A program made the translations under genes and the position numbers. Below the pieces are notes generated by a model that was given only the letters and a program-made list of their open reading frames with translations, was not told the origin of the DNA and made no database searches. Positions 418 to 45,190 of a stretch of 64,000 nucleotides of DNA are shown here, piece by piece. Numbering within the stretch: position 1 is the first letter of the stretch; each line of letters opens with the position of its first letter. Source of the DNA: Roseovarius sp. GTDB taxonomy: Bacteria > Pseudomonadota > Alphaproteobacteria > Rhodobacterales > Rhodobacteraceae. The stretch is from positions 70,417 through 134,416 of the forward strand of contig NZ_JAVJUC010000022.1 of the NCBI RefSeq assembly GCF_040219995.1, written 5' to 3'.

Positions 418-872
418 TGACCGAGCGTCAGATCACCGGAAAACACGTGTTCATCGGCTTCGCGTCGGCCTTTGCGATCATCATCGGGGTCAATCTAGTG
501 CTGGCCTTTTCGGCGGTGCGCACCTTTCCGGGGCTGGAGGTCAAGAATTCCTATGTCGCGAGCCAGGAATTCAACGACCGCAAGGCCGCACAGGAGGGTC
601 TGGGCTGGACCATCGCGGCGGATCATGCTGATGGGATGCTGACCCTCGGGATCACCGATGAGGCGGGGGAACCCGTCGAGGTCGCAAGGCTGGAGGCCAC
701 GGTCGGGCGCGCCACGCATGTGCAGGACGACCAAACACCCGAGTTTCGCTTTGACGGCAGCGCCTATGTCGCCCCTGTGGCGCTTGGCGATGGCAACTGG
801 AATATCCGCATGAAGGCGTGGGACGAGGCCGGTACGCTCTTTCAGCAGCGGGTCGTTCTGCACAAGGACTAG
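417..872 (+). CDS. ccoH: FixH/CcoH family protein
   Basis: N-terminal TM, FPGLEVKNSYVASQ motif; lies between ccoG and ccoI. Confidence 0.9.
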   Translation: MTERQITGKHVFIGFASAFAIIIGVNLVLAFSAVRTFPGLEVKNSYVASQEFNDRKAAQEGLGWTIAADHADGMLTLGITDEAGEPVEVARLEATVGRATHVQDDQTPEFRFDGSAYVAPVALGDGNWNIRMKAWDEAGTLFQQRVVLHKD

Positions 873-875
873 GGT

Positions 876-3059
876 ATGACCGCCACCATGCGCCCCACGC
901 CCTCGGCCTGTCCGGCCTGTTCCGCCGCCCCGGCGGCAGAGGCATTGGCGGCGCGCGACCTGCCCAATGCGCAGATCGCCCTGTCGCTGCCGACGATCCA
1001 TTGCTCGGCCTGCATTTCCAAGATCGAGCGGGCGCTGAACGATCATCCGCAGGTCAATTCGGCGCGTGTTAACCTCACGCTCAAGCGCGCCAGCATCGAC
1101 GCCGCGCCCGAGGTGACGGCAGAGGAGATGCGTGCGCTCGTCGAGGGGCTTGGATACGAGGCGCATGAGCTTGATGCGGGCACGCTCAATGCCACCGCGA
1201 CGGACCGCGCGGGGCGCGATCTGTTGATGCGGCTGGCTGTTGCGGGCTTTGCCAGCATGAATGTCATGCTCCTGTCGGTCTCGGTCTGGTCGGGGGCAGA
1301 GGACGCGACGCGGGACATGTTCCACTGGATCTCGGCCGCGATCACGCTGCCCGCGATTGCCTTTTCCGGCGTGCCATTCTTTCGCAATGCCTGGGCTGCG
1401 CTGCGCAACGCACGGCTCAATATGGATGTGCCGATCGTTCTGGCCATCGTTCTGGCCATCGTCACCTCGCTGTGGGAGACGATGCTGTCGGGCGAGCATG
1501 CCTATTTCGACGCCGCCCTTGCGCTGACGTTCTTTCTGCTGGCCGGGCGCTATCTGGATCACCGGACGCGGGCGATTGCCCGTTCGGCGGCGGAGGAATT
1601 GACCGCGCTCGAAGTGCCGCGCGCGACGCGGGTCAGGGACGGCGTCGAAGACGTGGTGAATGTCGCGGAACTGGCGGTGGGCGATCTGATCCTCGTGCGG
1701 CCCGGCGGGCGGATGCCGGTGGATGGCGAGATCGTCAGCGGTACGTCGGAGATCGACCGCTCGCTGCTGACCGGCGAGACGCTGCCGGTCTTTGCAGGCG
1801 AGGGGCAGGCGGTCAGCGCGGGCGAGGTCAATCTCACCGGCCCGCTGACCATCCGTGCCAGTGCCGTTGGGGCCGAGACCTCGCTGCACCGGATGGCCGA
1901 TCTGGTGGCCATCGCGGAATCGGGGCGCTCGCGCTACACCTCGCTCGCTGACCGGGCGGCAAAGCTTTATGCGCCGGGGGTGCATATCCTGTCGGGGCTG
2001 AGCTTCATCGGCTGGTATCTCTATACATGGGACATGCGCACGGCGCTCAACATCGCGGCTGCGGTGCTGATCATCACCTGCCCCTGCGCGCTTGGCCTTG
2101 CAGTGCCTGCGGTGACCACGGCGGCCTCTGGGCGGCTCTTTCGGCGGGGGATGCTGATCAAGCATGAAACAGCGCTGGAACGGCTGGCGCAGGTGGATAC
2201 GGTGGTGTTCGACAAGACTGGCACGCTCACCACCGGCACGCCGCATCTGACCAATCTCGACGCCCTGCCGCGCGCGGCGATGGAGACGGCGCTCGCATTG
2301 GCGCAGGGCTCGTCGCATCCGCTGGCGCAGGCGATCACCAAGGCGGCGCGCGATGCAGGCTTTGCCGCAGCGGAGGTTCGCGACGTGACCGAGGTGCCGG
2401 GCTATGGCACCAAAGGGCTGATTGACGGCCAGGAGGTGCGGCTTGGGCGCGCAAGCTGGACCGGGGCCGAGGGGCTGTCGCAAACCGCGACCTATCTGAA
2501 GATCGGCGATGCGGCCCCGCTGGCGCTGACCTTCACCGATGCCCTGCGCCCCGGCGCGGAAGAGGCGGTGCAGGCGCTGGTTGCACAGGGCAAGCGCGTG
2601 ATCCTGATGTCGGGCGACACCACCCCGGCGGTGGAGGCCTTGGCGCAGCGTCTGGGTATCCCGCATTGGATGGCCGAGGCACTGCCTGCCGACAAGGCGG
2701 CGCGCGTCGAGGCGCTGCGCGGTGAGGGGGCGCATGTGCTGATGGTGGGTGACGGGCTCAACGATACCGCCGCGCTGACGGCGGCGCATGTGTCGATCTC
2801 GCCTGCCACGGCGCTTGATGCCGCACGGGTGGCCTCGGATATCGTGCTTCTGGGCAATGACCTCTCGCCCATCGGGGCGGCCTGCGAGACGGCGAAATCC
2901 GCCACCCGCCGCATCCGTGAGAATTTCCGCATCGCCACGGTCTACAACATTATCGCGGTGCCGCTGGCGGTGGCGGGGCTGGCGACGCCGTTGATCGCGG
3001 CCTTGGCCATGTCGCTCAGTTCGATTACGGTGTCGTTGAATGCCCTGCGACTGAGGTAA
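876..3059 (+). CDS. ccoI: Cu-translocating P1B-type ATPase CcoI/FixI
   Basis: CPAC and CSAC metal motifs, TGE, CPC, DKTGT phosphorylation site, GDGLND. Confidence 0.95.
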   Translation: MTATMRPTPSACPACSAAPAAEALAARDLPNAQIALSLPTIHCSACISKIERALNDHPQVNSARVNLTLKRASIDAAPEVTAEEMRALVEGLGYEAHELDAGTLNATATDRAGRDLLMRLAVAGFASMNVMLLSVSVWSGAEDATRDMFHWISAAITLPAIAFSGVPFFRNAWAALRNARLNMDVPIVLAIVLAIVTSLWETMLSGEHAYFDAALALTFFLLAGRYLDHRTRAIARSAAEELTALEVPRATRVRDGVEDVVNVAELAVGDLILVRPGGRMPVDGEIVSGTSEIDRSLLTGETLPVFAGEGQAVSAGEVNLTGPLTIRASAVGAETSLHRMADLVAIAESGRSRYTSLADRAAKLYAPGVHILSGLSFIGWYLYTWDMRTALNIAAAVLIITCPCALGLAVPAVTTAASGRLFRRGMLIKHETALERLAQVDTVVFDKTGTLTTGTPHLTNLDALPRAAMETALALAQGSSHPLAQAITKAARDAGFAAAEVRDVTEVPGYGTKGLIDGQEVRLGRASWTGAEGLSQTATYLKIGDAAPLALTFTDALRPGAEEAVQALVAQGKRVILMSGDTTPAVEALAQRLGIPHWMAEALPADKAARVEALRGEGAHVLMVGDGLNDTAALTAAHVSISPATALDAARVASDIVLLGNDLSPIGAACETAKSATRRIRENFRIATVYNIIAVPLAVAGLATPLIAALAMSLSSITVSLNALRLR

Positions 3060-3062
3060 GCG

Positions 3063-3221
3063 ATGAATATCCTCACCTACCTGATCCCGATATCGCTCAT
3101 CCTGGGGGGGGTTGGCCTCGTTGCCTTTGTGTACACGGTGCGCAGCAATCAGTATGACGATCCCGAGGGCGACGCGCGGCGCATCCTGTCGGATGACTGG
3201 GACGACCATCCCAAACCCTGA
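3063..3221 (+). CDS. ccoS: cbb3 oxidase maturation protein CcoS/FixS (52 aa, absent from ORF track)
   Basis: Hand translation MNILTYLIPISLILGGVGLVAFVYTVRSNQYDDPEGDARRILSDDWDDHPKP; QYDD motif; directly after ccoI. Confidence 0.9.
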   Translation: MNILTYLIPISLILGGVGLVAFVYTVRSNQYDDPEGDARRILSDDWDDHPKP

Positions 3222-3225
3222 GCCG

Positions 3226-3273
3226 TCTTCATCTTGCCGTAAATATCCCGGGGGTTTGGGGGCTGGCCCCCAA
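3226..3273. repeat. Short intergenic element with GC hairpin (cttcatcttgccgtaaatatcccggggg...gggggctggccccc)
   Basis: Hairpin seen between convergent ccoS and carboxypeptidase genes; resembles, from recall, a dispersed Rhodobacterales repeat; only one copy in this window. Confidence 0.35.
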
Positions 3274-3284
3274 TCACCCCGTAA

Positions 3285-4766
3285 TCAGCTTGGCCCGATC
3301 ATGAAGCAGGTCATCTGCTTGGCCTGCAACCGGCGGCAGGCGAGGTCGGCGCTGTCGCGGGTCATGCCCATGAAATTTGCGTCGAACCCGGTGGGCCGTT
3401 TCACGACCTTGCGCAGGCTGCCGTCGAGCGTGGCCATTTCGCTGAGAGCGGTCTGCAAGAGCACCTGACGGGCCTTGTACTCGCTGGGGAAGCGGCCCAC
3501 GTTCACGCCCCAATGCCGCCCGCCGGAAGTGGAGACGCGGGTCACGACCTCTGCCACCGGGTCCGTGGCCTCGGCGCTGGCAAGCGTGACGTCCTTGGGG
3601 CGAGGTTCTGGCCGGATGGCAGCATTTACAGCCTCGGCGATAGCTGTGCTGCCCTGTGCGGTTTGGGTGGCGGTCTCGTCCGGAGTGCCAGTCTCGACGG
3701 TGCTGTTCTGCGCCGCAAGCAGCGCGCGTTCGATGTCGCCGCTGTCGGCGATGAGCACCGGTGTGGTCTCTGCGCCGGGTCGGGGGCGGGGGCGCAGGCT
3801 TTTGCGGACGGCGGCGGCAGCGGCGAGGCGCACGGTTTTGCCGGCAAGCTCAGGGCGCGCGCCACCTGCGGCGATCATAACCGGCTGGCTGCCCATCTTG
3901 CCCAGATAGGCCGGGCGGGCCGGGCGGGCGAGGGCCACGCGGCTCGGTGCCTTGCCGAAGCCCAGGTCGAGCAATTCCGCCACCTTGGCATTGCGCGAAG
4001 TGGTCGAATTGCCGCCGAAAACCGTGGCGATGATCCGTTCGCCGCCGCGTTCGGCACTGGCCGTGAGGTTGAAGCCCGCCGCGCGGGTATAGCCCGTCTT
4101 GATCCCGTCCGCGCCGCTGTAACTCTGGAGCAGGCGGCGATTGGTATGGCTGACAGAGCGCACGCCCGCATGCGTCGTGATGCGCGAGAAGAGATTGTAA
4201 TAGTCGGGATAGTCGTAGAACAGGTGCCGCCCCAGGATCGTCATGTCGCGCGCGGTGGACAAGTGCCCGCTCTCGGTCAGGCCATGGGCGTTCTTGAACG
4301 TGGTGCGTGTCATCCCGAGCGCCTTGGCGGTGCGGTTCATGCGCCGGGCAAACTGTGCCTCGGACCCCTCGATCGCCTCGGCAAGGGCAGTGGCGGCGTC
4401 ATTGGCGGATTTGACCGCCGCCGCGCGGATCAGGTAGCGCAGGGCGATGGTCTGGCCCGGGCGCAGGCCGAGCTTGCTGGGCGGTTCGCTGGCCGCGAAT
4501 TTGGAAATCCGCACCTTGTCGTCAAGGCTGATCTCGCCGTTCTCGACCGCTTCGAACACGACATAGAGCGTCATCATCTTGGTGAGTGAGGCGGGGTGCA
4601 GTCGCGTATCGGCATTGCGCGCATAAAGCACCTTGCCGTTGCGTGCATCCATCACCAGACCCGCGTAGGGTGCTGCAGCCGCGCTCAACGGCACGATCAC
4701 CAACATCCAGAAGGTCGCGAACGCCACCAACCCCCAACGGATCGGCTGCCTGCCCCGTGTTTTCAT
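3285..4766 (-). CDS. D-alanyl-D-alanine carboxypeptidase (peptidase S11) with C-terminal SPOR-like domain
   Basis: SLTK (SxxK), SAN (SxN) and KTG motifs; signal peptide; low-complexity linker. Confidence 0.92.
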   Translation of the reverse strand: MKTRGRQPIRWGLVAFATFWMLVIVPLSAAAAPYAGLVMDARNGKVLYARNADTRLHPASLTKMMTLYVVFEAVENGEISLDDKVRISKFAASEPPSKLGLRPGQTIALRYLIRAAAVKSANDAATALAEAIEGSEAQFARRMNRTAKALGMTRTTFKNAHGLTESGHLSTARDMTILGRHLFYDYPDYYNLFSRITTHAGVRSVSHTNRRLLQSYSGADGIKTGYTRAAGFNLTASAERGGERIIATVFGGNSTTSRNAKVAELLDLGFGKAPSRVALARPARPAYLGKMGSQPVMIAAGGARPELAGKTVRLAAAAAVRKSLRPRPRPGAETTPVLIADSGDIERALLAAQNSTVETGTPDETATQTAQGSTAIAEAVNAAIRPEPRPKDVTLASAEATDPVAEVVTRVSTSGGRHWGVNVGRFPSEYKARQVLLQTALSEMATLDGSLRKVVKRPTGFDANFMGMTRDSADLACRRLQAKQMTCFMIGPS

Positions 4767-7345: not shown

Positions 7346-7543
7346 TTGCGGTCTCTTCAATGGGAAGTGTGGGCAAGATTAGCAGGCCCGCCATGGGGTG
7401 CAAGTGATGCATTGCCGGCGGAAATCCGCAATATCATGTGGATAACTGGCCCACTCGCCCCATATCCTGTGGTTGGTCGTTGACAGAATCGCGGCGGGCT
7501 GGTCACATTCTGCTTTGATGGAATCGCCAGACCCGAGGTGCGC

Positions 7544-10500
7544 GTGCAGTTCTCCAAACTCCGATTGACCGGCTTCAAGAGCTTTGTCGACCCGACCGAC
7601 CTGATCATCGCCGATGGTCTGACCGGGGTGGTGGGGCCGAACGGCTGTGGCAAGTCGAACCTGCTGGAGGCGCTGCGTTGGGTGATGGGCGAGAACCGCC
7701 CCTCTGCGATGCGCGGCGGCGGGATGGAGGACGTGATCTTTGCCGGGGCTGCGACGCGCCCGGCGCGCAATTTTGCCGAGGTGGTGATCCATCTCGACAA
7801 TTCCGACCGGCTGGCCCCGGCCGGGTTCAACGATGCCGATCATCTGGAAATCGTGCGCCGGATCACCCGTGACGTGGGCAGCGCCTATAAAGTCAACACC
7901 AAGGATGTGCGCGCGCGCGATGTGCAGATGCTTTTTGCCGATGCCTCGACCGGCGCGCATTCGCCCGCGCTGGTCCGGCAGGGACAGATCTCGGAACTGA
8001 TCAACGCCAAGCCGAAATCGCGGCGGCGTATTCTGGAAGAGGCGGCGGGGATTTCTGGACTCTACCAGCGCCGCCACGAGGCGGAGTTGAAGCTGCGCGC
8101 GGCGGAGACCAATCTGACCCGCGTCGATGATGTGGTCGAACAACTGGCCGCGCAATTAGCGCAACTGGCGCGGCAGGCCAAGCAGGCGGCGCGCTATCGC
8201 CAGATCGGCGAGGAATTGCGGCTGGCTGAGGGGTTGTTACTTTATCGCCGCTGGAAAGAGGCGGATCAGGCACGCGCGCGGGCCGAGGAGGAATTGCGCG
8301 AGCGCACCACGGCGGCAGCACGCGCCGAAACGGCGGCGCGTGCTGCCGCCCGCGCCCGTGCAAAGGCCGACGACGCCCTGCCCGCCCTGCGCGAGGAAGA
8401 GGCGATCGCGGGGGCGATCCTGCAACGGCTGACCGTGCAGCGCGACACCCTGTCGGAACAAGAGGCCAATGCCCGCGACCGGATCGAGACGCTGGAGGGA
8501 CGCATCGCGCAGCTTGCCCGCGATATCGAGCGTGAGACCGGCCTCAACCACGATGCCGGCGAGACGATCAAACGCCTCGACTGGGAGGCGGCGGAACTGG
8601 CCAAGGGGGCCGAGGGGCACGAGGCCCGCCTAGAGGCCGCGCAGGAGGAAGCGCGCGACGCCGCCCGCGTGTTGCAGCAGCGCGAAAGCGATCTGAGCCA
8701 GATGACAGAGGACATGGCCCGGCTCTCGGCGCGGCACCAATCGGCGCAGCGCCTGATCGAGGATTGCCGCAAGACGCTGGCCAAGAGCGAGGCCGAGGCC
8801 GAACGCGCCCGCGCGGCACAGAGCCAATCGCGCGAGGCGCTGCGCAAGGCCGAGACCGATCAGGCGGCGGCGGCCAAGGCCGAAGCCGAGGCGGTGGCGG
8901 CAGCAGAGGCCGCCGAGGCCGCGCTTGTCACCGCCGACGAGGCCCGCGCAGAGGCGCAGACCCGCGAGGCCGAGGCCCGCGCGGCCCGGTCCGAGGCCGA
9001 GGGCGAGGTCAACGCCCTGCGCGCCGAGGTCACGGCGCTGGCGAAACTGGTCGAGCGCGACACCGCCGAGGGCGGGCAGATCATGGACCGCCTGCAGGTG
9101 CAGCAGGGCTTCGAGAAAGCGCTTGGTGCGGCGCTTGCCGACGATCTGCGCGCGCCCGAGGTCGAGGCCGATGGCCCCTCGGGCTGGACCATTCTGCCGG
9201 GATACCAGACGCCGCAGCCCCTGCCCGAGGGGGTCACCGCGCTAACCAACCACGTCTCGGTGCCCGAGGTTCTGGCGCGCCGCATGTCGCAGATCGGTCT
9301 GGTAGATGCCGAGGATGCGCCGCGTTTGCAACCGCTCCTGAAACCCGGTCAGCGGCTGGTCAGCACCGAGGGTGATCTGTGGCGGTGGGACGGGTTTCGG
9401 GCCTGGGCCGAGGATGCGCCTTCGGCAGCGGCACTCCGCCTGCAACAACTGAACCGACTGGAAGAGTTGAAGCAGCAGCTGGAACATGCCACCGCGCGCG
9501 CCGACGGGGCGATGCGCGCGCATGAGGCGCTGCGTGAGCAACTGGCAGCCTGCACCGAAAAGGACCGTGCTGCGCGCGAGGCGCGCCGGGCAGCGGATGC
9601 CGCCGTCAACGAGGCCAATCGCGCCCTGAGCCGGGCCGAGGCCGACAGCAACCTTGCCGGATCGCGGCTCGAGTCCTCGAGCCTCGCGGTAACGCGCCAC
9701 GAGGAAGAGGCGATGGCGGCGCGCAAGGGGCTGGCAGAGGCCGAAAAGGGGCTCTCCGGGCTGGGCGATCTGGAGGCCACGCGCGCCGATCTCGAAGACA
9801 TCAAGATGACCGTCGAGGCCGCGCGCATGACGATGATGGCGCGCCGCTCGGCAGCGGATGAGTTGCGCCGCGACGGAGAACGTCGGACCCGCCGCAGCCA
9901 GGAAATCGCCAAGGAAATCAGCGGTTGGCGACACCGGCTGGAGACCGCCGAGAAACGCAGTGCTGAGCTGGCAGAGCGCAAGGATGCATCAGAGGCGGAA
10001 CTGGCCGAGGCGAGTGCCACGCCGGAGATCCTCGCCGCAAAGCGCGCGGAACTGAGCGAAGAGATCACCCGCAGCGAGGCGCGCCGGGCACAGGCCGCCG
10101 ATGCGCTCTCGACCGCCGAAGGGGCGGCGCGGCAGGCCGGGCTCAATGAGCGCGAGGCCGAGCGGCAGGCGTCGGAGGCCCGCGAGGCCCGCGCCCGCGC
10201 CGAGGCGCGTGTCGATGCCGCGCGCGAGACCCGAGATCTGGCCGCCGAGCGGATTGGCGAGGCCATGGACACCACGCCCGACGCCCTGCTCGAAAGCCTT
10301 GGGGCCGACCCTGACACCATGCCCGGCTCCGACGCCATCGAGGGGGATGTGAACCGTCTCAAACGGCAACGCGACGCGCTCGGCGCGGTGAACCTGCGCG
10401 CCGAAGAGGATGCCAAAGAGGTGCAGGAAGAGCATGACACGCTGGTCACGGAAAAGGCCGATCTGGAAGAGGCGATCAAGACGCTGCGGGGCGGGATTGC

Positions 10501-10999
10501 CAGCCTCAACCGCGAGGGGCGCGAGCGTCTGCTGACCGCCTTCGAGCAGGTCAATTCCAATTTCACGCTGCTGTTCCGCCATCTCTTCGGCGGTGGCGAG
10601 GCCAATCTCGTGCTTGTCGAGAGCGATGACCCGCTGGAGGCGGGGCTCGAGATTATGTGCCAGCCGCCGGGCAAGAAGCTGTCGACGCTGAGCCTGTTGT
10701 CGGGGGGCGAGCAGACGCTGACCGCATTGGCGCTGATCTTTGCGGTATTCCTCGCCAATCCCGCACCCATTTGCGTGCTCGACGAGGTGGACGCGCCGCT
10801 CGATGACGCCAACGTGACACGCTTCTGCGACCTGCTGGATGAAATGTGCCGCCGCACCGAGACGCGGTTCCTGATCATCACCCACCACGCCGTGACGATG
10901 AGCCGGATGGACCGGCTCTTCGGGGTGACCATGGCCGAGCAGGGGGTCAGTCAGCTTGTCTCGGTGGACCTCAAGAAGGCCGAAGCCATGGTGGCGTGA
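7544..10999 (+). CDS. smc: Chromosome segregation protein SMC
   Basis: Walker A GPNGCGKSN, long coiled coils with hinge, LSGGE signature, LDEVDAPLD; GTG start at 7544 follows GAGG (7538 is an alternative). Confidence 0.97.
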   Translation: MQFSKLRLTGFKSFVDPTDLIIADGLTGVVGPNGCGKSNLLEALRWVMGENRPSAMRGGGMEDVIFAGAATRPARNFAEVVIHLDNSDRLAPAGFNDADHLEIVRRITRDVGSAYKVNTKDVRARDVQMLFADASTGAHSPALVRQGQISELINAKPKSRRRILEEAAGISGLYQRRHEAELKLRAAETNLTRVDDVVEQLAAQLAQLARQAKQAARYRQIGEELRLAEGLLLYRRWKEADQARARAEEELRERTTAAARAETAARAAARARAKADDALPALREEEAIAGAILQRLTVQRDTLSEQEANARDRIETLEGRIAQLARDIERETGLNHDAGETIKRLDWEAAELAKGAEGHEARLEAAQEEARDAARVLQQRESDLSQMTEDMARLSARHQSAQRLIEDCRKTLAKSEAEAERARAAQSQSREALRKAETDQAAAAKAEAEAVAAAEAAEAALVTADEARAEAQTREAEARAARSEAEGEVNALRAEVTALAKLVERDTAEGGQIMDRLQVQQGFEKALGAALADDLRAPEVEADGPSGWTILPGYQTPQPLPEGVTALTNHVSVPEVLARRMSQIGLVDAEDAPRLQPLLKPGQRLVSTEGDLWRWDGFRAWAEDAPSAAALRLQQLNRLEELKQQLEHATARADGAMRAHEALREQLAACTEKDRAAREARRAADAAVNEANRALSRAEADSNLAGSRLESSSLAVTRHEEEAMAARKGLAEAEKGLSGLGDLEATRADLEDIKMTVEAARMTMMARRSAADELRRDGERRTRRSQEIAKEISGWRHRLETAEKRSAELAERKDASEAELAEASATPEILAAKRAELSEEITRSEARRAQAADALSTAEGAARQAGLNEREAERQASEAREARARAEARVDAARETRDLAAERIGEAMDTTPDALLESLGADPDTMPGSDAIEGDVNRLKRQRDALGAVNLRAEEDAKEVQEEHDTLVTEKADLEEAIKTLRGGIASLNREGRERLLTAFEQVNSNFTLLFRHLFGGGEANLVLVESDDPLEAGLEIMCQPPGKKLSTLSLLSGGEQTLTALALIFAVFLANPAPICVLDEVDAPLDDANVTRFCDLLDEMCRRTETRFLIITHHAVTMSRMDRLFGVTMAEQGVSQLVSVDLKKAEAMVA

Positions 11000-18741: not shown

Positions 18742-18830
18742 AACGATAAACGCCCCCGTGGGCGCAACGCGCTGACGGGGGGCGATCCCGGACCGCGCCC
18801 GGGACCGGAAGCATGCGGCTTCCGGGGTGT
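18742..18830 (-). ncRNA. Structured 5' leader of ffh with three hairpins
   Basis: ccggaagc/gcttccgg, cccgg/ccggg and cgcccc-cgt/acg-ggggcg stems between promoter and RBS. Confidence 0.5.
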
Positions 18831-32907: not shown

Positions 32908-33152
32908 TGGAGTGGGAATGGCCTGAAGCTGACGTTAGATTGAAGCACCTGCGCGGAACAAGGGCGAAGCCCGCCGCGCATCGCCGGGCCGCCCCCCGGC
33001 ACGGCGATTTGGCTGCAACCTGCTCTGTGCGCGGATGTTTTTCGGGCTTGGCTGATATAAAGCGCTACAAATCTGATGTTGGATCGCCGCACCGCGGCCC
33101 GTCGATGCGCGGCTCACGTCAACGGCAGATCCAGGCCATTACGCACCCCTTT

Positions 33153-34268
33153 CTAGAACGGCTTGCGCCAGGCGAGGGCGAAGCTCCAGTCGGTTTTGGA
33201 CTGCACGCCGTTGAGGTCCTGATGGATCGGCAGACCCAGTTCAAAGCCGATCAGGTGGCCTTTCAGCGGCCCCTTGCGGGGTGTGATGTCGGCCCCGGCA
33301 TAGAGCGTCACGTAGCGCCCGCCGTAATTCTGCGGATCGGCCCCGAGTGACGGCCCCATGATGCGCGGATCGCGCCCGTGGATGTGATCGGCATAGCGAT
33401 ATTCGAGCCGACCCGAGTAGCTGATCCACGGCGCGGCGCGGTAGCTGAGCCAGCCGGTGAGGGCTGCCTCATGGCCCTGCCGATACCCGGCGTGATTGCG
33501 GTCGAGCCGCAGGATGCCGCGCAGCTGCCCGCCCCAGTTCATCGCACCACGCCCGCTCTCCCATGTCAGGCTGGGATGCAGATCGTAGGTGCCCGAGCCA
33601 AGCTGCATCGAATAGGCGAGCCGCATGGTGGGGGTGGTGCCCATCGGGCTGAGCATCTGGCCGGTTTCGGTGATCGAGCCGGTGGGCAGGCTGAGCCCGA
33701 GGCCGAGCGCGGCGCGGCTGCGCCCGGCCTTGTGCAGCGACCAGAGCGCGCCGAGACGGAGATCGCCGAGACCCTCTGAGCTGGCAGTGTTCTGGCCGAG
33801 GACCGTGGTGCCGGTGGGACCGGCATAGGTGCGCATGGTCATGGATTTGCGGATATAGGGCAGCATGCCCATCAAGGTGAGGCGATCGCTGACGCCGTAC
33901 ATCGCGCCCAGCATGTGCATCTGGCCGGTCATCTCGACCGGGGCCATGCGGATGGTGGGGGGCTGGCCGGGCATACCGGCAAAGGCATTGGGCACCGTCG
34001 TGACCAGCGTCGCGGCATCGAGATCATCGGTGCCGGAGCGGATGCCCGCCATCGACATCGCGCCCAGCCGGTAGGTCAGAACCACGCGGCCCTCGGGCAG
34101 TTGGTGGCGGCCCGGCAGGCCGACGGGGCCGTGATGGTGCATATGGTGCTGGCTCCGGGGCATCTTGCCGCCGGTCTGCATGGTCATCGTTGGCATGGTC
34201 TGGGCCGTGGCCATGGTGGCCAGCAGCCCGGCGCAGGCGAGAGCCGCGCCAAGGGTTCGTTTGAGCAT
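33153..34268 (-). CDS. Met/His-rich outer-membrane beta-barrel protein, copy 2 (putative metal uptake channel)
   Basis: Signal peptide, TMPTMTM..HHMHHH N-terminus, QMHMLGAMY, alternating beta-strand pattern, terminal Phe. Confidence 0.75.
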   Translation of the reverse strand: MLKRTLGAALACAGLLATMATAQTMPTMTMQTGGKMPRSQHHMHHHGPVGLPGRHQLPEGRVVLTYRLGAMSMAGIRSGTDDLDAATLVTTVPNAFAGMPGQPPTIRMAPVEMTGQMHMLGAMYGVSDRLTLMGMLPYIRKSMTMRTYAGPTGTTVLGQNTASSEGLGDLRLGALWSLHKAGRSRAALGLGLSLPTGSITETGQMLSPMGTTPTMRLAYSMQLGSGTYDLHPSLTWESGRGAMNWGGQLRGILRLDRNHAGYRQGHEAALTGWLSYRAAPWISYSGRLEYRYADHIHGRDPRIMGPSLGADPQNYGGRYVTLYAGADITPRKGPLKGHLIGFELGLPIHQDLNGVQSKTDWSFALAWRKPF

Positions 34269-34337
34269 TGTGTCGTCCTTTGAGAACGGGCGCGCAGGAG
34301 CGGCCCGGTGATCTGTCGTGATGGTGTCAGGGTCAGA

Positions 34338-34721
34338 TCAGGCGATCGGGGGCGCGCGGGGCTGATGGGCGGGTGCCGTGGGCCGCGTCACGCGGGCGGG
34401 GTGGCCGGGCCGGACTATCCGCGCAACCAGCCGCCCGCTGGGCGCCGGAACGGTGAGATCGGGCAGATCAAGCGCTGCGGTGATCCCGAAGGCGGGGCAG
34501 GGATCGTGGGCGGTGCCCTCGCCCGGTTCCGCCGGGCCGTCGCCGCCGATGGGGATATAGATGATGTCCGTGCCGGTGCAGATCGCCATCATGCCGGGGC
34601 CGGGGGCGCCGCCCGCCATCACCATCGGCAGGGCCGCGACCCGCAGGGCAAGCACCAGCGCCAGAAGCACCGCTACGCCGCCGCGCGCCCAGGCGGTCGA
34701 GATCTTGGGAATGGTCCGCAT
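34338..34721 (-). CDS. DUF2946/CruR-like leader protein with C-terminal PRAPP, copy 2
   Basis: Hydrophobic N-terminus, ICTG, HDPCPAF, Pro-rich tail QPRAPPIA*. Confidence 0.8.
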   Translation of the reverse strand: MRTIPKISTAWARGGVAVLLALVLALRVAALPMVMAGGAPGPGMMAICTGTDIIYIPIGGDGPAEPGEGTAHDPCPAFGITAALDLPDLTVPAPSGRLVARIVRPGHPARVTRPTAPAHQPRAPPIA

Positions 34722-34747
34722 AGCTGCCCGTTACTTGTTCGGGTCAG

Positions 34748-34775
34748 TTATATGGATGATCACGAATTTGTGAAG
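34748..34775 (-). promoter_or_regulatory. Candidate promoter TTCACA-N16-TATAAC with overlapping TCAC-N6-GTGA inverted repeat
   Basis: AT-rich patch about 30 nt upstream of leader 2. Confidence 0.45.
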
Positions 34776-34807
34776 TCGAAGCCGGACCCGTGGTCCGTTT
34801 TGCCGCA

Positions 34808-34837
34808 GGGGGGCGCGGGGAAACCCCGCGCCCCCCC
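34808..34837. other. GC-rich hairpin directly after the barrel 1 stop
   Basis: ggggggcgcgggg-aaa-ccccgcgcccccc; no U-tract on the minus strand. Confidence 0.55.
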
Positions 34838-34842
34838 GTTCT

Positions 34843-35976
34843 TCAGAATGCGTATTGCCAGCCGAGTGAGGCGATCCAGTCGGTTTCCATCTGCGGGCCG
34901 TTAAGGTCCTGATAGACCGGCACGCCGATTTCGGCGGCGAGGCGATGGCCGCGCAGCGCACCGCGCTGCGAGACGAGGTTCACCCCGCCAAAGAGGGTGA
35001 TGGTGTCACCGCCGTAATTGTCCGGGTCGGCGGTTTGCACCGGGCCTGCGATTTGCGAATCGCGGCCGCTGATATCGCCGACGGTCTTGGCCTCGATCCG
35101 TCCCGAGAGGCTGATCCACGGCTTGGGCTGGATGCTGGCCCAGCCGGTCAGCCGCGCCTCGTGGCCCAAACGGTAGCCTTCGTTCTTGCCGGTGCGGATC
35201 ACGCCCGACAGTTGCGCGCCCCAAGCGGTATTGCCCGAGCGGGCGTTGTAGGTGATGCCCGGCAGCAGGTCATAGGTGCCCGATCCGATCTGCATCGCGT
35301 AGGGCAGGCGGATATTGGGGCGGGCGCCATTGGGGGCGAGGATCGTGCCGCGCTCGGAGGTGGAGCCGGTGGGCAGGCTGACCCCAAAATTGAGGTGCCA
35401 TTTGTGATTGCCGCGCTCGGCGAGGCCGATCAGGGCCGACACCTTGAGATCGCCCCAGCCCTCGGAGGAGGTGCGAAAGCCGCCCAGAACGTTCGTGCCC
35501 GCGCCGCCCTGAAAGGTGATGTGGTCCATCTTCTTCTCGACATAGGGCAGCATCGCCATCAGGGTGATGCGGTCATTGGGGGCGTACATCGCGCCGAACA
35601 TGTGCATCTGCATCTGCATGTCGGTGGGCACGATCCGCAGCGTCGGCGGCTGGCCCGGCGCGCCGAAGAAGCGGTTGGGCACGGTGGTTGCGATGGTGGC
35701 GGGGCTGACATTGTCGTCGCCGATGAGATTGCCCTGCATGTCCATGTGCATGAAGCGATAGGAGAGCATCACCTCGCCGGTCTTGTGGCGGTGTTCGCCC
35801 ATCACGCCGATCGGGGCGTGACCATCGGCGCGCAGCGGTGGAAGGTCGGTCGCGCTGACGCGCAGCCCGTCGCCGGGGGCAGGTGGCGCGTCTTCGTGCG
35901 CCGTCGCGGGCAGTGTCGAAAAGCAAAGCGTCAGGGTCGCGCAGAATGCACCTGCGCGCAGGAAAACCTGTGTCAT
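34843..35976 (-). CDS. Met/His-rich outer-membrane beta-barrel protein, copy 1
   Basis: Signal peptide, RADGHAPIGVMGEHRH, MHMDM, MQMQMHMFGAMY, ends WQYAF. Confidence 0.8.
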   Translation of the reverse strand: MTQVFLRAGAFCATLTLCFSTLPATAHEDAPPAPGDGLRVSATDLPPLRADGHAPIGVMGEHRHKTGEVMLSYRFMHMDMQGNLIGDDNVSPATIATTVPNRFFGAPGQPPTLRIVPTDMQMQMHMFGAMYAPNDRITLMAMLPYVEKKMDHITFQGGAGTNVLGGFRTSSEGWGDLKVSALIGLAERGNHKWHLNFGVSLPTGSTSERGTILAPNGARPNIRLPYAMQIGSGTYDLLPGITYNARSGNTAWGAQLSGVIRTGKNEGYRLGHEARLTGWASIQPKPWISLSGRIEAKTVGDISGRDSQIAGPVQTADPDNYGGDTITLFGGVNLVSQRGALRGHRLAAEIGVPVYQDLNGPQMETDWIASLGWQYAF

Positions 35977-36280
35977 GGTCTTGGTCTCTTTTGTTGGGGT
36001 CCGTCGGATGGGCGCGCGGGGCTAGGCGAGTGGCCCGGCTGGCGCCTGCGGAATTCCTCGTGAAAATGGATTGGGTGATCTGGCCGTAAGGGGCTGGCAT
36101 GGGCCCGTTCGGGCCGGTCATCCCTGCTCTCGATTGTGTCCGTCTGCCCGCTGGAGAGGGCGTCGCGGTCGAGAACCTGAATGGGGAAAGCCCCCCGCAC
36201 CGGATGTCCCGCTGGAGATGCATGCCGTCCCTGTGTGGGGGAACGGATGCACGGGTGGGCCCGTCAGGCGCGCATGCCAG

Positions 36281-36709
36281 TTATCCCTGGGCAGGCAGGG
36301 GCGGTGCGCGCGGGCTGTAGGCCGCGCAGGGGGTCTGCGCGGCGGCGCAGGGCACGTCAGTGCGCGCCGTGATGTAGGAAAAGGCGACGATCCGCGCTGC
36401 CGGGTCGACCACAATGTCGGTCAGCGCGGCGGGTGATTTGAAGAACGGGCAGGGCGTGCTGAGATGTGGGCCGTCGTGATCATGCGCGGCCTCAGTCGGG
36501 CCGGGCTCTGCGGCATGGTCCTCGACGAGGCATAGCTCACCACCCAGTGCCAGCGCCTCGACGCGCAGCGCCTCTTGCGCGCGCTCGGCGGCGCGGGCGG
36601 CATCGGCCAGCTCGTGCTGACAGTCGACGGCGGCGGCGGTGGCGACGCGCACGCTGAGCAGCAGGATCAGAAGGGCCGGTGCGACACCGACCTTTCGCAA
36701 ACCTGCCAT
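36281..36709 (-). CDS. DUF2946/CruR-like leader protein with C-terminal PRAPP, copy 1
   Basis: Signal peptide ending ATAAA, HDHDGPHLSTPCPFF, tail SPRAPPLPAQG*; start moved to MAGLRK. Confidence 0.75.
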   Translation of the reverse strand: MAGLRKVGVAPALLILLLSVRVATAAAVDCQHELADAARAAERAQEALRVEALALGGELCLVEDHAAEPGPTEAAHDHDGPHLSTPCPFFKSPAALTDIVVDPAARIVAFSYITARTDVPCAAAQTPCAAYSPRAPPLPAQG

Positions 36710-36857
36710 GAGTGCGCCTATGCTCAACACATCGAAATCCCCGGGCCTGAATGGCCGGACTCGTCCAAAATCAAGCGCGGGAGCGAGTAATGAAGTGACC
36801 GCGCAGGAAAAGGTTAGCCAGCGATGCAAATTTCGTCAAGCCTGCGGGTGGGGCGGC

Positions 36858-37724
36858 CTAGCCCTTTTGGCGTTGCCGCCAGAGGGTGAAGAGCCCCGCC
36901 CCCACGATCAGCGCCGCGCCAAGCGCCACGTTGAGGCGGATGGTCTCGGAAAACACCAGGATGCCGAGCGTGCTGGCAAAGACCAGTTGCAGATAGGCGA
37001 AGGGCTGCACCGCGCTGGCCTCGGCGACCTCGTAGCATTTGATCAACGTGTAATGCCCCGCCGCGCCGGTGATGCAGAGCGCCCCCATCCAGACCCAGTC
37101 GGGGCCGGTCATCGGTTCCCAGAACCACGCGCCGACCGCCGTCATCGCGACCGAGCCCACGGTGCCGGTCCAGAAGAACGAGGTGGCCGCCGTGTCGCGC
37201 CTGGCGACAAAGCGGGTGAGCAGGCCGTAGAGTGCGAACATCAGTGCCGCGATGAAGGGGATGATGGCCGCGGGCTGGAACACGCCGAAGCCGGGCTCGA
37301 GGATGATGGTCACGCCGACGAAGCCGACGGCGATTGCTGCCCATCTGCGCCAGCCCACGCTTTCGCCCAGAACCGGCCCTGAAAGGGCGGCGATGAGAAG
37401 CGGGTAGGCGGCAAAGACTGCGTGGCTCTCGACCAACCCCAGAAGGGTGAAGCCGTAGATCATCACGCAGATCTCTGCCACCAGAAGCACCGCGCGAAAG
37501 CCCTGCATCAGGGGTTGCGAGGTGGCGGCGGCGCTGCGCAGGCCGCCCGCCTTGCGCGCGGCGATGGTCATGACGAAGGCGGCGAAGAACCAGTAGCGGA
37601 TCATCACCACCATGAAGACGTTGTATTCGCCTGCCAGATGCCGCGAGATGCCATCCTGCACCGCGAAGATGAAGGTGGTCAGCACCATCAGCCAGATGCC
37701 GAGCCGGGTATTCTGGTCTGTCAT
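36858..37724 (-). CDS. DMT/EamA family transporter
   Basis: About ten hydrophobic segments, GESVGWRRW, EASAVQPFAYLQL. Confidence 0.9.
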   Translation of the reverse strand: MTDQNTRLGIWLMVLTTFIFAVQDGISRHLAGEYNVFMVVMIRYWFFAAFVMTIAARKAGGLRSAAATSQPLMQGFRAVLLVAEICVMIYGFTLLGLVESHAVFAAYPLLIAALSGPVLGESVGWRRWAAIAVGFVGVTIILEPGFGVFQPAAIIPFIAALMFALYGLLTRFVARRDTAATSFFWTGTVGSVAMTAVGAWFWEPMTGPDWVWMGALCITGAAGHYTLIKCYEVAEASAVQPFAYLQLVFASTLGILVFSETIRLNVALGAALIVGAGLFTLWRQRQKG

Positions 37725-45116: not shown

Positions 45117-45190
45117 TGGAGCGGGTAACGGGAATCGAACCCGTAACTGAAGCTTGGGAAGCTTTCGTGATACCTTTTCACCATACCCGC
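45117..45190 (-). tRNA. tRNA-Gly (anticodon CCC)
   Basis: GCGGGTA...AAAGC TT CCC AA GCTT...GGTTCGATTCC...ACCCGCT CCA; cloverleaf with encoded CCA. Confidence 0.95.

Follow-up and report, generated by a model that had tools for sequence, protein, structure and literature searches.

What is the function of two small, apparently exported proteins, each ending in the ribosome-stalling motif RAPP, that precede two outer-membrane barrels in a marine alphaproteobacterium? The question is raised by four open reading frames (ORFs) that lie in series on the minus strand at 33153-36709 of a 64,000-nucleotide (nt) window of Roseovarius sp. contig NZ_JAVJUC010000022.1, the stretch that was analyzed as a whole and to which all coordinates below refer. 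They are leader 1 (36281-36709; 142 amino acids (aa)), barrel 1 (34843-35976; 377 aa), leader 2 (34338-34721; 127 aa) and barrel 2 (33153-34268; 371 aa). A preliminary description of this DNA had listed these four frames, and both the ORF calls and independent gene callers, which return products of the same 142, 377, 127 and 371 aa on three metagenome contigs, bear it out. Leader and barrel are separated by 304 nt in unit 1 and by 69 nt in unit 2; the two barrels are paralogues with 50% identity, and the leaders share 37% identity over 78 aa. Our best overall explanation, to which we accord a little better than an even chance, is that the locus comprises two autonomous, adjacent copper-acquisition modules, in which CruR-type leaders control channels lined with methionines that would conduct Cu(I). 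From the sequences, the earlier reading, namely metal-sensing arrest leaders of the CruR kind that control small outer-membrane barrels, appears to be right in kind. The class of copper-sensing stalling leaders to which both leaders belong (CruR/CutF) is already known; what the present analysis adds is a candidate copper channel family and a conserved RNA in the intergenic region of units of the first type (type-1 units).

Both leaders terminate in an arrest-type motif. The RAPP codons of leader 1 (36310-36299) are located five codons ahead of the stop codon (36283-36281), and those of leader 2 (34358-34347) three codons ahead of it (34340-34338); this is the ending reported earlier as PRAPP, except that the coordinates then given are those of RAPP itself, with the preceding proline just upstream. 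The window has 589 stop-to-stop ORFs that are 60 codons or longer, of which 4 have a RAPP within the last 12 residues. Two of these are the leaders and the other two are out-of-frame ORFs inside longer genes, giving a background of 2 in 587 ORFs. Examined by eye, both N-termini show a basic n-region, a hydrophobic core and an RVA(A/T)A c-region, as expected of Sec-type signals and in agreement with the export-type N-termini noted previously. The His/Cys patches quoted at that time (HDHDGPHLSTPCPFF in leader 1 and ICTG...HDPCPAF in leader 2) are likewise present: leader 1 has a His patch, HDHDGPH (36484-36464), followed by CPFF (36451-36440) containing Cys87, and leader 2 has Cys48 of ICTG (34580-34578) followed by HDPCPAF (34508-34488) containing Cys75. 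Neither leader contains the CxxC of CruR or the CxxxC of CutF; in its place there is a single Cys (C87-P-F-F and C75-P-A-F), which is separated from RAPP by 46 intervening residues in leader 1 and leader 2 alike. CruR (Bp2923) is the DUF2946 protein that heads cruR-crtA(bfrG)-bp2921 in Bordetella pertussis (PMC9426467; PMC12914433), and copper regulation requires its corresponding Cys-to-RAPP spacing of 45, which varies by no more than 1-2 residues among over 2,000 proteins (PMC9426467).

Profile comparisons point to the same family. Leader 2 aligns with DUF2946 (PF11162) at 23.5 bits (E = 1e-4), just below the gathering cut-off of 23.7, and shares the semi-conserved 'ICTG' Cys with classic DUF2946 members; its orthologue in Roseovarius tolerans carries a weak precomputed DUF2946 match. 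The leader 1-type and leader 2-type profiles in turn align with each other in hhalign with P = 90% (E = 1.4e-6). The Pfam scan suggested earlier as a check returned PF13557 for both barrels and DUF2946 in borderline form for leader 2, with none for leader 1. The leader 1 group comprises 63 homologues, which are restricted to Roseovarius, are all named 'hypothetical' and are without a Pfam domain. The bit score, the profile match and the shared 46-residue spacing together uphold the relationship to DUF2946 sensors that had been put forward and, on sequence grounds, both leaders are relatives of the copper-responsive CruR/CutF nascent-chain sensors. Leader 1 could begin at ATG 36709 (142 aa) or at GTG 36730 (149 aa), of which the latter has the better Shine-Dalgarno (SD) sequence and yields the annotated length of the R. 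tolerans orthologue; a still longer, TTG-initiated form is ruled out by an RNA 5' end at 36795.

The pairing of such a leader with such a barrel is not confined to this locus. We assembled 80 related barrel loci from GTDB species genomes, these being the best 80 of about 521 GTDB hits, and found a small same-strand ORF with an xxPP ending upstream of the barrel in at least 63 of them (RAPP in 44, TGPP in 7, RGPP in 5 and xDPP/xSPP in 7). In more than 90% of these 63 motif-anchored leaders a Cys is located 45-49 residues upstream of the motif, and besides the two prolines it is the sole nearly invariant residue; the arrest-type ending and its fixed distance from the Cys are thus retained across very divergent leaders, the remaining sequence not. 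DUF2946 is matched at E <= 0.01 by 30 of 65 barrel-associated leaders. Three kinds can be recognized: classic CPxC leaders; leaders with a single Cys, in contexts such as TPCPFF, HDPCPAF, ACSFWS (with His runs), ACVLKS and also CPAMG; and leaders with PCCSACGP that end in TGPP. The preliminary description had drawn attention to CPxF in place of CxxC; this is no peculiarity of the locus, given that many of the 63 leaders have just the one Cys. It had also presented a doubled, possibly two-threshold leader-barrel system as not known to its author: the pairing proves to be a widespread module, the doubling alone is rare, and the idea of a two-threshold device is an overstatement.

The barrels were examined for fold and likely substrate. 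Their only Pfam match at E <= 1 is PF13557 (28.1 bits for barrel 1 and 29.8 bits for barrel 2, against a cut-off of 22), and there is no Pfam match in either to TonB_dep_Rec, Plug or CopB (PF05275). Barrel 1 has a signal peptide and a C-terminal Phe, and the mature barrel is about 350 aa long. An AlphaFold2 model of barrel 1, built with 55 homologues, has a pLDDT of 89.9 and 12-13 long strands as listed by DSSP; its best match in Foldseek is 4RL8 (Pput2725, COG4313; E = 8e-13, TMt 0.76, TMq 0.55), followed by FapF. These matches came from the fold search alone; the barrel profile found no relative when run against PDB sequences. Pput2725 is a 12-stranded barrel whose lumen is occluded by an N-terminal segment (PMC4493636), and the model suggests that the barrels are likewise roughly 12-stranded channels of the COG4313 kind. 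Their length (377 and 371 aa), the want of TonB/Plug matches and a fold otherwise seen in small barrels agree with the earlier statement that they are too small to be TonB-dependent receptors. The description of the barrels as Met/His-rich stands in part: Met is enriched (4.2% in barrel 1 and 6.7% in barrel 2, against a mean of 2.6% in nine large ORFs of the window), whereas His is not (2.9% and 4.0%, against 3.1%).

The methionines are distributed in a conspicuous pattern. Twelve of them (M70, 76, 78, 80, 120, 122, 124, 126, 130, 140, 142 and 150 in barrel 1 numbering) are conserved at 93% or more, and every one of them occupies an even position in one of the first three strands, which are adjacent. 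Because the opposite face of strands 1 and 3 is hydrophobic, we infer that the conserved Met face points into the lumen. Ahead of strand 1 there is a further conserved motif, H53-x-P-I-G-V-M59-G-x-H62-x-H64. Barrel 2 belongs to a Roseovarius-restricted subfamily of its own and has a Met/His-rich N-terminal tail (MPTMTMQTGGKMPRSQHHMHHHGP) with the His-rich stretch HHMHHH. With the COG4313 channels (Pput2725 4RL8, TcpY and SphA) the barrels share PF13557 and, by the model, a similar fold (best match, TMt 0.76) with a segment before strand 1, but they are about 80 residues longer (mature length about 350 aa as opposed to 270-320 aa), the Met wall and the His/Met N-terminal motif are specific to their subfamily, and their context is one of copper chaperones and metal-sensing leaders rather than catabolic operons. 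With OprC/NosA/CrtA and PcoB/CopB they would share Met/His-based copper sites, and with PcoB/CopB also the Met/His-rich N-terminal tail, though not the CopB (PF05275) match; judged by size and fold they differ from OprC/NosA/CrtA (22 strands, a plug and about 700 aa) in not being TonB-dependent. The subfamily is large, with more than 4,000 homologues in a word-seeded search and 1,465 clusters in a full HMMER scan (50% identity, E <= 1e-30), and its members bear no NCBI name beyond 'transporter'.

Gene neighborhoods and domain fusions furnish the link to copper. A co-oriented gene for a PCuAC chaperone is encoded beside the barrel in 20 of the 80 loci when sought directly with tblastn; an earlier heuristic, which took the longest downstream ORF, had under-counted it (3 of 27). 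Five of these 20 are operons of the form leader-PCuAC-barrel. In the loci L009-L013 (e.g. L009:3913-5996) the leader is of the ACVLKS type with RAPP and the PCuAC protein has a C-terminal DHSGH repeat. Furthermore, among representatives of the family this barrel is naturally fused at its N-terminus to PCuAC (two cases), CusF, a YtkA-like domain or NosL; the fusion proteins are P0267, P0273, P0275, P0306 and P0332. PCuAC, CusF, YtkA and NosL are periplasmic Cu(I) binders. Given these neighbors and fusions, copper is likely to be the substrate of the barrels, and since PCuAC and NosL serve in the assembly of cuproenzymes, uptake is favored over efflux. A literature search yielded no paper that links Phenol_MetA_deg/PF13557/COG4313 to copper, and the supplements of the CruR and CutF studies are silent on such a link, with neighbor-family figure panels that are unreadable and could contain a prior listing; a search for pcuABCDE/PcuB returned unrelated plant papers only. 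The CruR laboratory, in a paper of January 2026, notes that Cu(II) is assumed to pass through porins and that the few copper-specific outer-membrane transporters known so far are all TonB-dependent. Set against this background, the barrel family looks like an undescribed family of TonB-independent copper channels, as far as sequences allow such a judgment.

How might the leader be coupled to expression of the barrel? In unit 1 the promoter region (36795-36840, minus strand) has a -35-like CTTGAC at 36840-36835, which is conserved upstream of the type-1 leaders in six Roseovarius loci, and an RNA 5' end at 36795. A scan of 33000-37000 for consensus promoters and terminators returned nothing, and the promoter-like elements given here come from manual reading and conservation. 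The 5' end comes from RNA-seq of an organism with a locus about 96% identical to ours, for which assembled contigs of four runs were at hand. In three of these runs an abundant contig (depth 150-226), whose 5' end at 36795 directly abuts the Illumina adapter, takes in the 5' untranslated region and leader 1 together with almost the whole of the 304-nt intergenic region, and has its 3' end at 36060 (against the adapter), 35984 or 35930. Elsewhere depths are far lower: 3.6-8 over barrel 1, 3-7 over the upstream EamA gene and 0-10 over unit 2, so that by contig depth RNA of leader 1 and the intergenic region is 25-50 times more abundant than that of barrel 1. The drop in RNA after intergenic region 1 fits CruR-like attenuation, with a constitutive leader and a terminated operon.

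Within this intergenic region RNAalifold predicts a conserved structured domain (36083-36292, minus strand), initially from 7 and subsequently from 11 Roseovarius type-1 units. In its closing helix the segment 36285-36273 (GGGA..CUGGCAUG), which overlaps the stop codon of the leader, pairs with 36101-36089 (CAUGCCAGCCCC), and this helix encloses another one together with a hairpin formed around the first of two invariant CUCCAGCGGG motifs (36217-36208 and 36156-36147); the motif is almost confined to type-1 intergenic regions. In the 11-sequence alignment 92.5% of the cells are paired, and 15 compensatory pairs are seen against 7.0 +/- 1.8 in shuffles (none of 500 reaching 15) and 3-8 in slid controls, which amounts to moderate support for a conserved RNA structure. 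Rfam has no match in the locus, either at the gathering threshold over the whole window or at a permissive E-value over 34200-36850. The possibility that the region is a decayed PCuAC gene was considered and rejected, as the window has no PCuAC-like match (E <= 1) and the conservation follows the pattern of RNA helices. Downstream of the domain the C-rich 3' part of the intergenic region (35977-36082, minus strand) is predicted to be unstructured; here the abundant RNA ends, the proportions of C and G in 60-nt windows are 37-50% and 20-27% respectively, and there are a conserved U tract (36066-36062) and the weak SD of barrel 1, AAGAGA. Bubbles of C over G, the signature used for locating the rut site in cruR, occur at the 3' end of leader 1 (36330-36250) and again after the RNA domain (36110-36010). 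In a conserved geometry, arrest on RAPP would bring the ribosome up to about 36289, at the foot of the closing helix, and to arrive at the stop codon of leader 1 it would have to unwind the 5' strand of that helix. In two metagenomic relatives (L090:4501-4971 and L091:4501-4905) the leader ORF extends 19 codons past RAPP, through the 5' strand of the closing helix.

Unit 2 appears to be built differently and to stand by itself. Immediately after the stop codon of barrel 1 there is a GC-rich hairpin (34806-34838, minus strand) with a perfect 15-bp stem, a UUU loop and no U tract, which could be a terminator, an RNA stabilizer or an element akin to repetitive extragenic palindromes. R. lutimaris has kept this hairpin in altered sequence, and in the window a further, small one follows it; the entire spacer between barrel 1 and leader 2 has a minimum free energy of -66.8 kcal/mol (z = -6.5 relative to shuffles). 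Further along, a promoter-like element read from the sequence, TTCACA-N16-TATAAC (34747-34774, minus strand), is invariant between the window and R. lutimaris in an otherwise variable spacer; the consensus scanner missed it because its -10 hexamer ends in C. Inside this element there is a palindrome, TCACAAATTCGTGA (34760-34773, minus strand), also invariant between the two, which may be an operator. The leader-to-barrel spacer of unit 2, intergenic region 2 (34269-34337, minus strand), is short (69 nt) and C-rich (C/G = 1.87), with a GC hairpin at 34306-34288, found at the matching place in four type-2 units, and the SD sequence AAAGGA (34281-34276), which is partly contained in a small hairpin.

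The distribution of the units among genomes bears on the doubling. The tandem is seen in R. tolerans, in R. lutimaris (L001) and in at least one further contig. One and the same slot, between the EamA and SLT genes, is occupied by the type-1 unit alone, with its long structured spacer, in two metagenomic Roseovarius relatives (L090 and L091) and by a type-2-like unit alone, with a short spacer, in R. faecimaris and R. salinarum (L086 and L087). An orthologue of barrel 2 stands alone beside DUF1989/CMD in L084 and L085, and R. mucosus (L089) and R. ramblicola (L092) carry the type-1 unit alone elsewhere in the genome. Lone barrel 2-type units in other genomes have a leader of 120-127 aa. Given the hairpin after barrel 1, the separate promoter-like element and the occurrence of each unit by itself in other genomes, the tandem looks like two autonomous, separable modules placed side by side.

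The comparison with CruR is the closest. As in CruR, the first ORF of each unit is small and exported, has RAPP near its stop codon and a Cys motif about 45 residues upstream; the leader 1 ORF has a C-over-G bubble at its 3' end; RNA is plentiful over the leader and scarce downstream; the intergenic region is long in unit 1 (304 nt, as opposed to 162 nt in cruR); and the gene controlled codes for an outer-membrane protein of copper acquisition, which for the barrels is a prediction. A cruR homologue is also found upstream of oprC. The locus differs from CruR in having a single Cys (CPFF, CPAF) instead of CxxC, a leader 1 outside the Pfam DUF2946 model, a target of about 350 aa and about 12 strands instead of a 22-stranded TonB-dependent transporter, a conserved structured RNA in intergenic region 1, a spacer of 69 nt in unit 2 and a tandem arrangement, and in the absence of a PepSY_TM gene from the locus. 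CutF, from the cutFOG operon of Rhodobacter capsulatus, has CxxxC and an EF-P-dependent GPPPRL motif, and high copper activates its multicopper oxidase through melting of a stem-loop that shields the SD (PMC9973294; bioRxiv 10.1101/2025.02.05.636593). The two leaders resemble it in being members of a superfamily whose exported leaders contain Cys/His and carry a Pro-rich arrest motif at the C-terminus, in coming from the same bacterial order and, for unit 2, in the short hairpin-bearing spacer; they differ in having RAPP, no oxidase gene and hairpins out of reach of the stalled ribosome. ApdA, ApdP and ApcA similarly combine a C-terminal RAPP core with an export signal and a place upstream of the regulated gene (PMC7897499; PMC10951233; PMC12992588). 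These, however, are Sec/YidC monitors with secretion machinery as their target, whereas here PF13557 barrels lie downstream and the signal for release is presumably a metal.

In light of the above-described features we propose that each module is made up of a promoter, a small leader ORF whose product is exported, an intergenic region and the gene for an outer-membrane channel. The RAPP arrest has been shown for CruR in vitro to be resistant to EF-P, with the Pro codons in the P and A sites (PMC12992588), and the ribosome on either leader would arrest in the same manner, with the Cys/His patch 46 residues upstream just leaving the ribosome. By analogy with CruR, when copper is scarce the arrest would persist and the barrel gene would be transcribed and translated as well; binding of copper to the nascent patch would release the arrest, the ribosome would reach the stop codon, and transcription would end in the intergenic region, probably via Rho. 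In unit 1 the arrested ribosome would abut the 210-nt RNA domain, so that the helix stays closed and the polymerase continues, while the released ribosome would unwind the closing helix and expose the C-rich RNA, with termination to follow. The leader of unit 2 may obey the same logic, but with a 69-nt spacer the read-out step may differ. The barrels would then conduct Cu(I) through the outer membrane independently of TonB and deliver it to chaperones in the periplasm. What the data display directly is the anatomy of the locus, its homologies and genomic associations and the drop in RNA in a close relative, whereas stalling, copper as the ligand, the direction of control, the involvement of Rho and transport are steps that we infer. 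A more ambitious proposal combines several of these parts, and we put it forward tentatively, as somewhat short of an even chance: the barrels would be founding members of a widespread TonB-independent family of Cu(I)-selective channels with a Met-lined lumen that feed PCuAC/NosL, the type-1 RNA would convert release of the RAPP arrest into termination, and the tandem would comprise two differently wired valves for copper uptake, one with a long structured spacer and the other with a short one.

Several observations weigh against this explanation. Leader 1 has no Pfam match to DUF2946, and leaders of its type align only weakly with the classic CPxC leaders (P = 7.7%), albeit in the same register. 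The CxxC required in CruR is absent, and the single Cys with its nearby His may bind another metal or behave differently. The CusF fusion would suit efflux equally well, and the placement of the Met face toward the lumen is based on strand parity and hydrophobicity, not on coordinates. In unit 1 the putative rut/termination zone is about 200 nt from the stall site, farther than in cruR, and the 11 aligned sequences behind the RNA domain are close relatives, from which the structure itself was derived; in unit 2 the spacer folds no better than shuffles (z of -0.4 to -2.3). As for the RNA, contig depth measures expression only crudely, the runs come from cultures grown under unknown conditions, and the fourth run (X16) has one contig that extends from the upstream gene through leader 1 into barrel 1, of which it covers 540 nt.

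The most developed alternative would place the modules on the side of CutF: periplasmic copper would prolong the arrest and open the RNA at the ribosome-binding site of the barrel, in both units or in unit 2 only, and the barrels would be copper-induced for tolerance or efflux in the manner of PcoB/CopB. Such positive control would suit the Sec-type N-termini of both leaders, the 69-nt spacer of unit 2 with hairpins near the SD that resemble those of cutF-cutO (PMC9973294), a host that is in the Rhodobacterales as is R. capsulatus, the fusion of one barrel to CusF, a Cu(I) binder of an efflux pathway, and the ability of the RAPP codons to pair with GCGCGC near either barrel start. We nevertheless think it unlikely, considering that the motif is RAPP as in CruR and not the EF-P-sensitive GPPPRL, that no gene for a multicopper oxidase, an RND protein or a P-type ATPase is adjacent to the locus, and that the recurrent partner PCuAC and the NosL/PCuAC fusions point to cuproenzyme assembly and acquisition. 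The low barrel RNA and high leader RNA in ordinary cultures of the relative would moreover have to be explained by a copper-poor medium, and the hairpins lie at least 30 nt farther than a ribosome could reach from RAPP or from the stop codon. Another soft or borderline metal (Ag(I), Ni, Co or Zn) might be sensed and moved instead, or each unit might have a specificity of its own, as is suggested by some CutF-like clusters with a His-only motif that lie upstream of Ni/Co genes (PMC9973294). The His beside the single Cys in both leaders and the HHMHHH of the barrel 2 tail would be compatible with this. However, all fused or neighboring partners found are Cu(I) proteins (PCuAC, NosL, CusF and YtkA), and by general coordination chemistry thioether-rich sites prefer Cu(I)/Ag(I) over Ni, Co and Zn, which makes this reading distinctly improbable.

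Two further readings detach the leader or the barrel from copper control. If the small ORFs were primarily mature periplasmic metal-binding proteins, RAPP would be incidental or would tune their yield, and the RNA drop would merely reflect a stable leader RNA; the leaders are indeed exported and contain Cys/His, CutF was itself initially taken for a chaperone (PMC8456105), and the structured intergenic RNA could shield a 5' fragment from decay. This we deem very improbable: highly divergent leaders have kept the arrest-type ending and the Cys spacing but not the rest of their sequence, neither CruR nor CutF can be detected as a protein and both work in cis, and proteomes are strongly depleted of RAPP outside regulatory leaders (PMC12992588). 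The barrels might, alternatively, be ordinary COG4313 channels for a hydrophobic organic substrate, with a leader that merely ties their expression to metal status, since the family that they match by Pfam and by fold has been implicated in taking up hydrophobic molecules. No catabolic genes lie nearby, however, and the subfamily has at least 12 conserved Met, a His/Met N-terminal segment and repeated fusions or linkages to Cu(I) chaperones, which together leave this reading extremely improbable.

The surroundings of the locus are unrelated to metals, with genes for EamA, MnmC and DAO upstream and for DUF1989, CMD and GNAT proteins downstream. R. tolerans, the closest named genome, has the same four genes with the same flanks, and its leader 1 is 94% identical. 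No NCBIfam model matches any of the four proteins, and the 64-kb window contains no further copy of the leaders or the barrels. The stretch 33000-33138, which adjoins barrel 2 on its 3' side, has a contig depth of 600-3600 in every run, as opposed to 40-120 in its flanks; many contigs branch at 33122-33138 and there is no second copy inside the window. It is probably a short genome-wide repeat present in multiple copies. Elsewhere in the window Rfam matches the ffh sRNA and a tRNA (18745-18796 and 45120-45190, both on the minus strand), and a local deviation in composition at 8-10 kb (GC 0.70, AT skew +0.27) falls inside an SMC gene (7538-10999, plus strand).

The passage of copper across the bacterial outer membrane is poorly understood, and the module described here points to a separate and abundant route without energy coupling, namely a small barrel with a conserved Met wall, which is nearly always preceded by an arrest-peptide leader and is often linked or fused to the Cu(I) chaperones of cytochrome oxidase and N2O reductase assembly. 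It would also extend the CruR/CutF paradigm to single-Cys sensors, to a new class of targets and to a structure in the intergenic RNA, which may explain how release of the ribosome is coupled to termination. In cultivable marine Roseovarius the modules supply genes that can be tested directly and that bear on respiration and denitrification when copper is limiting.

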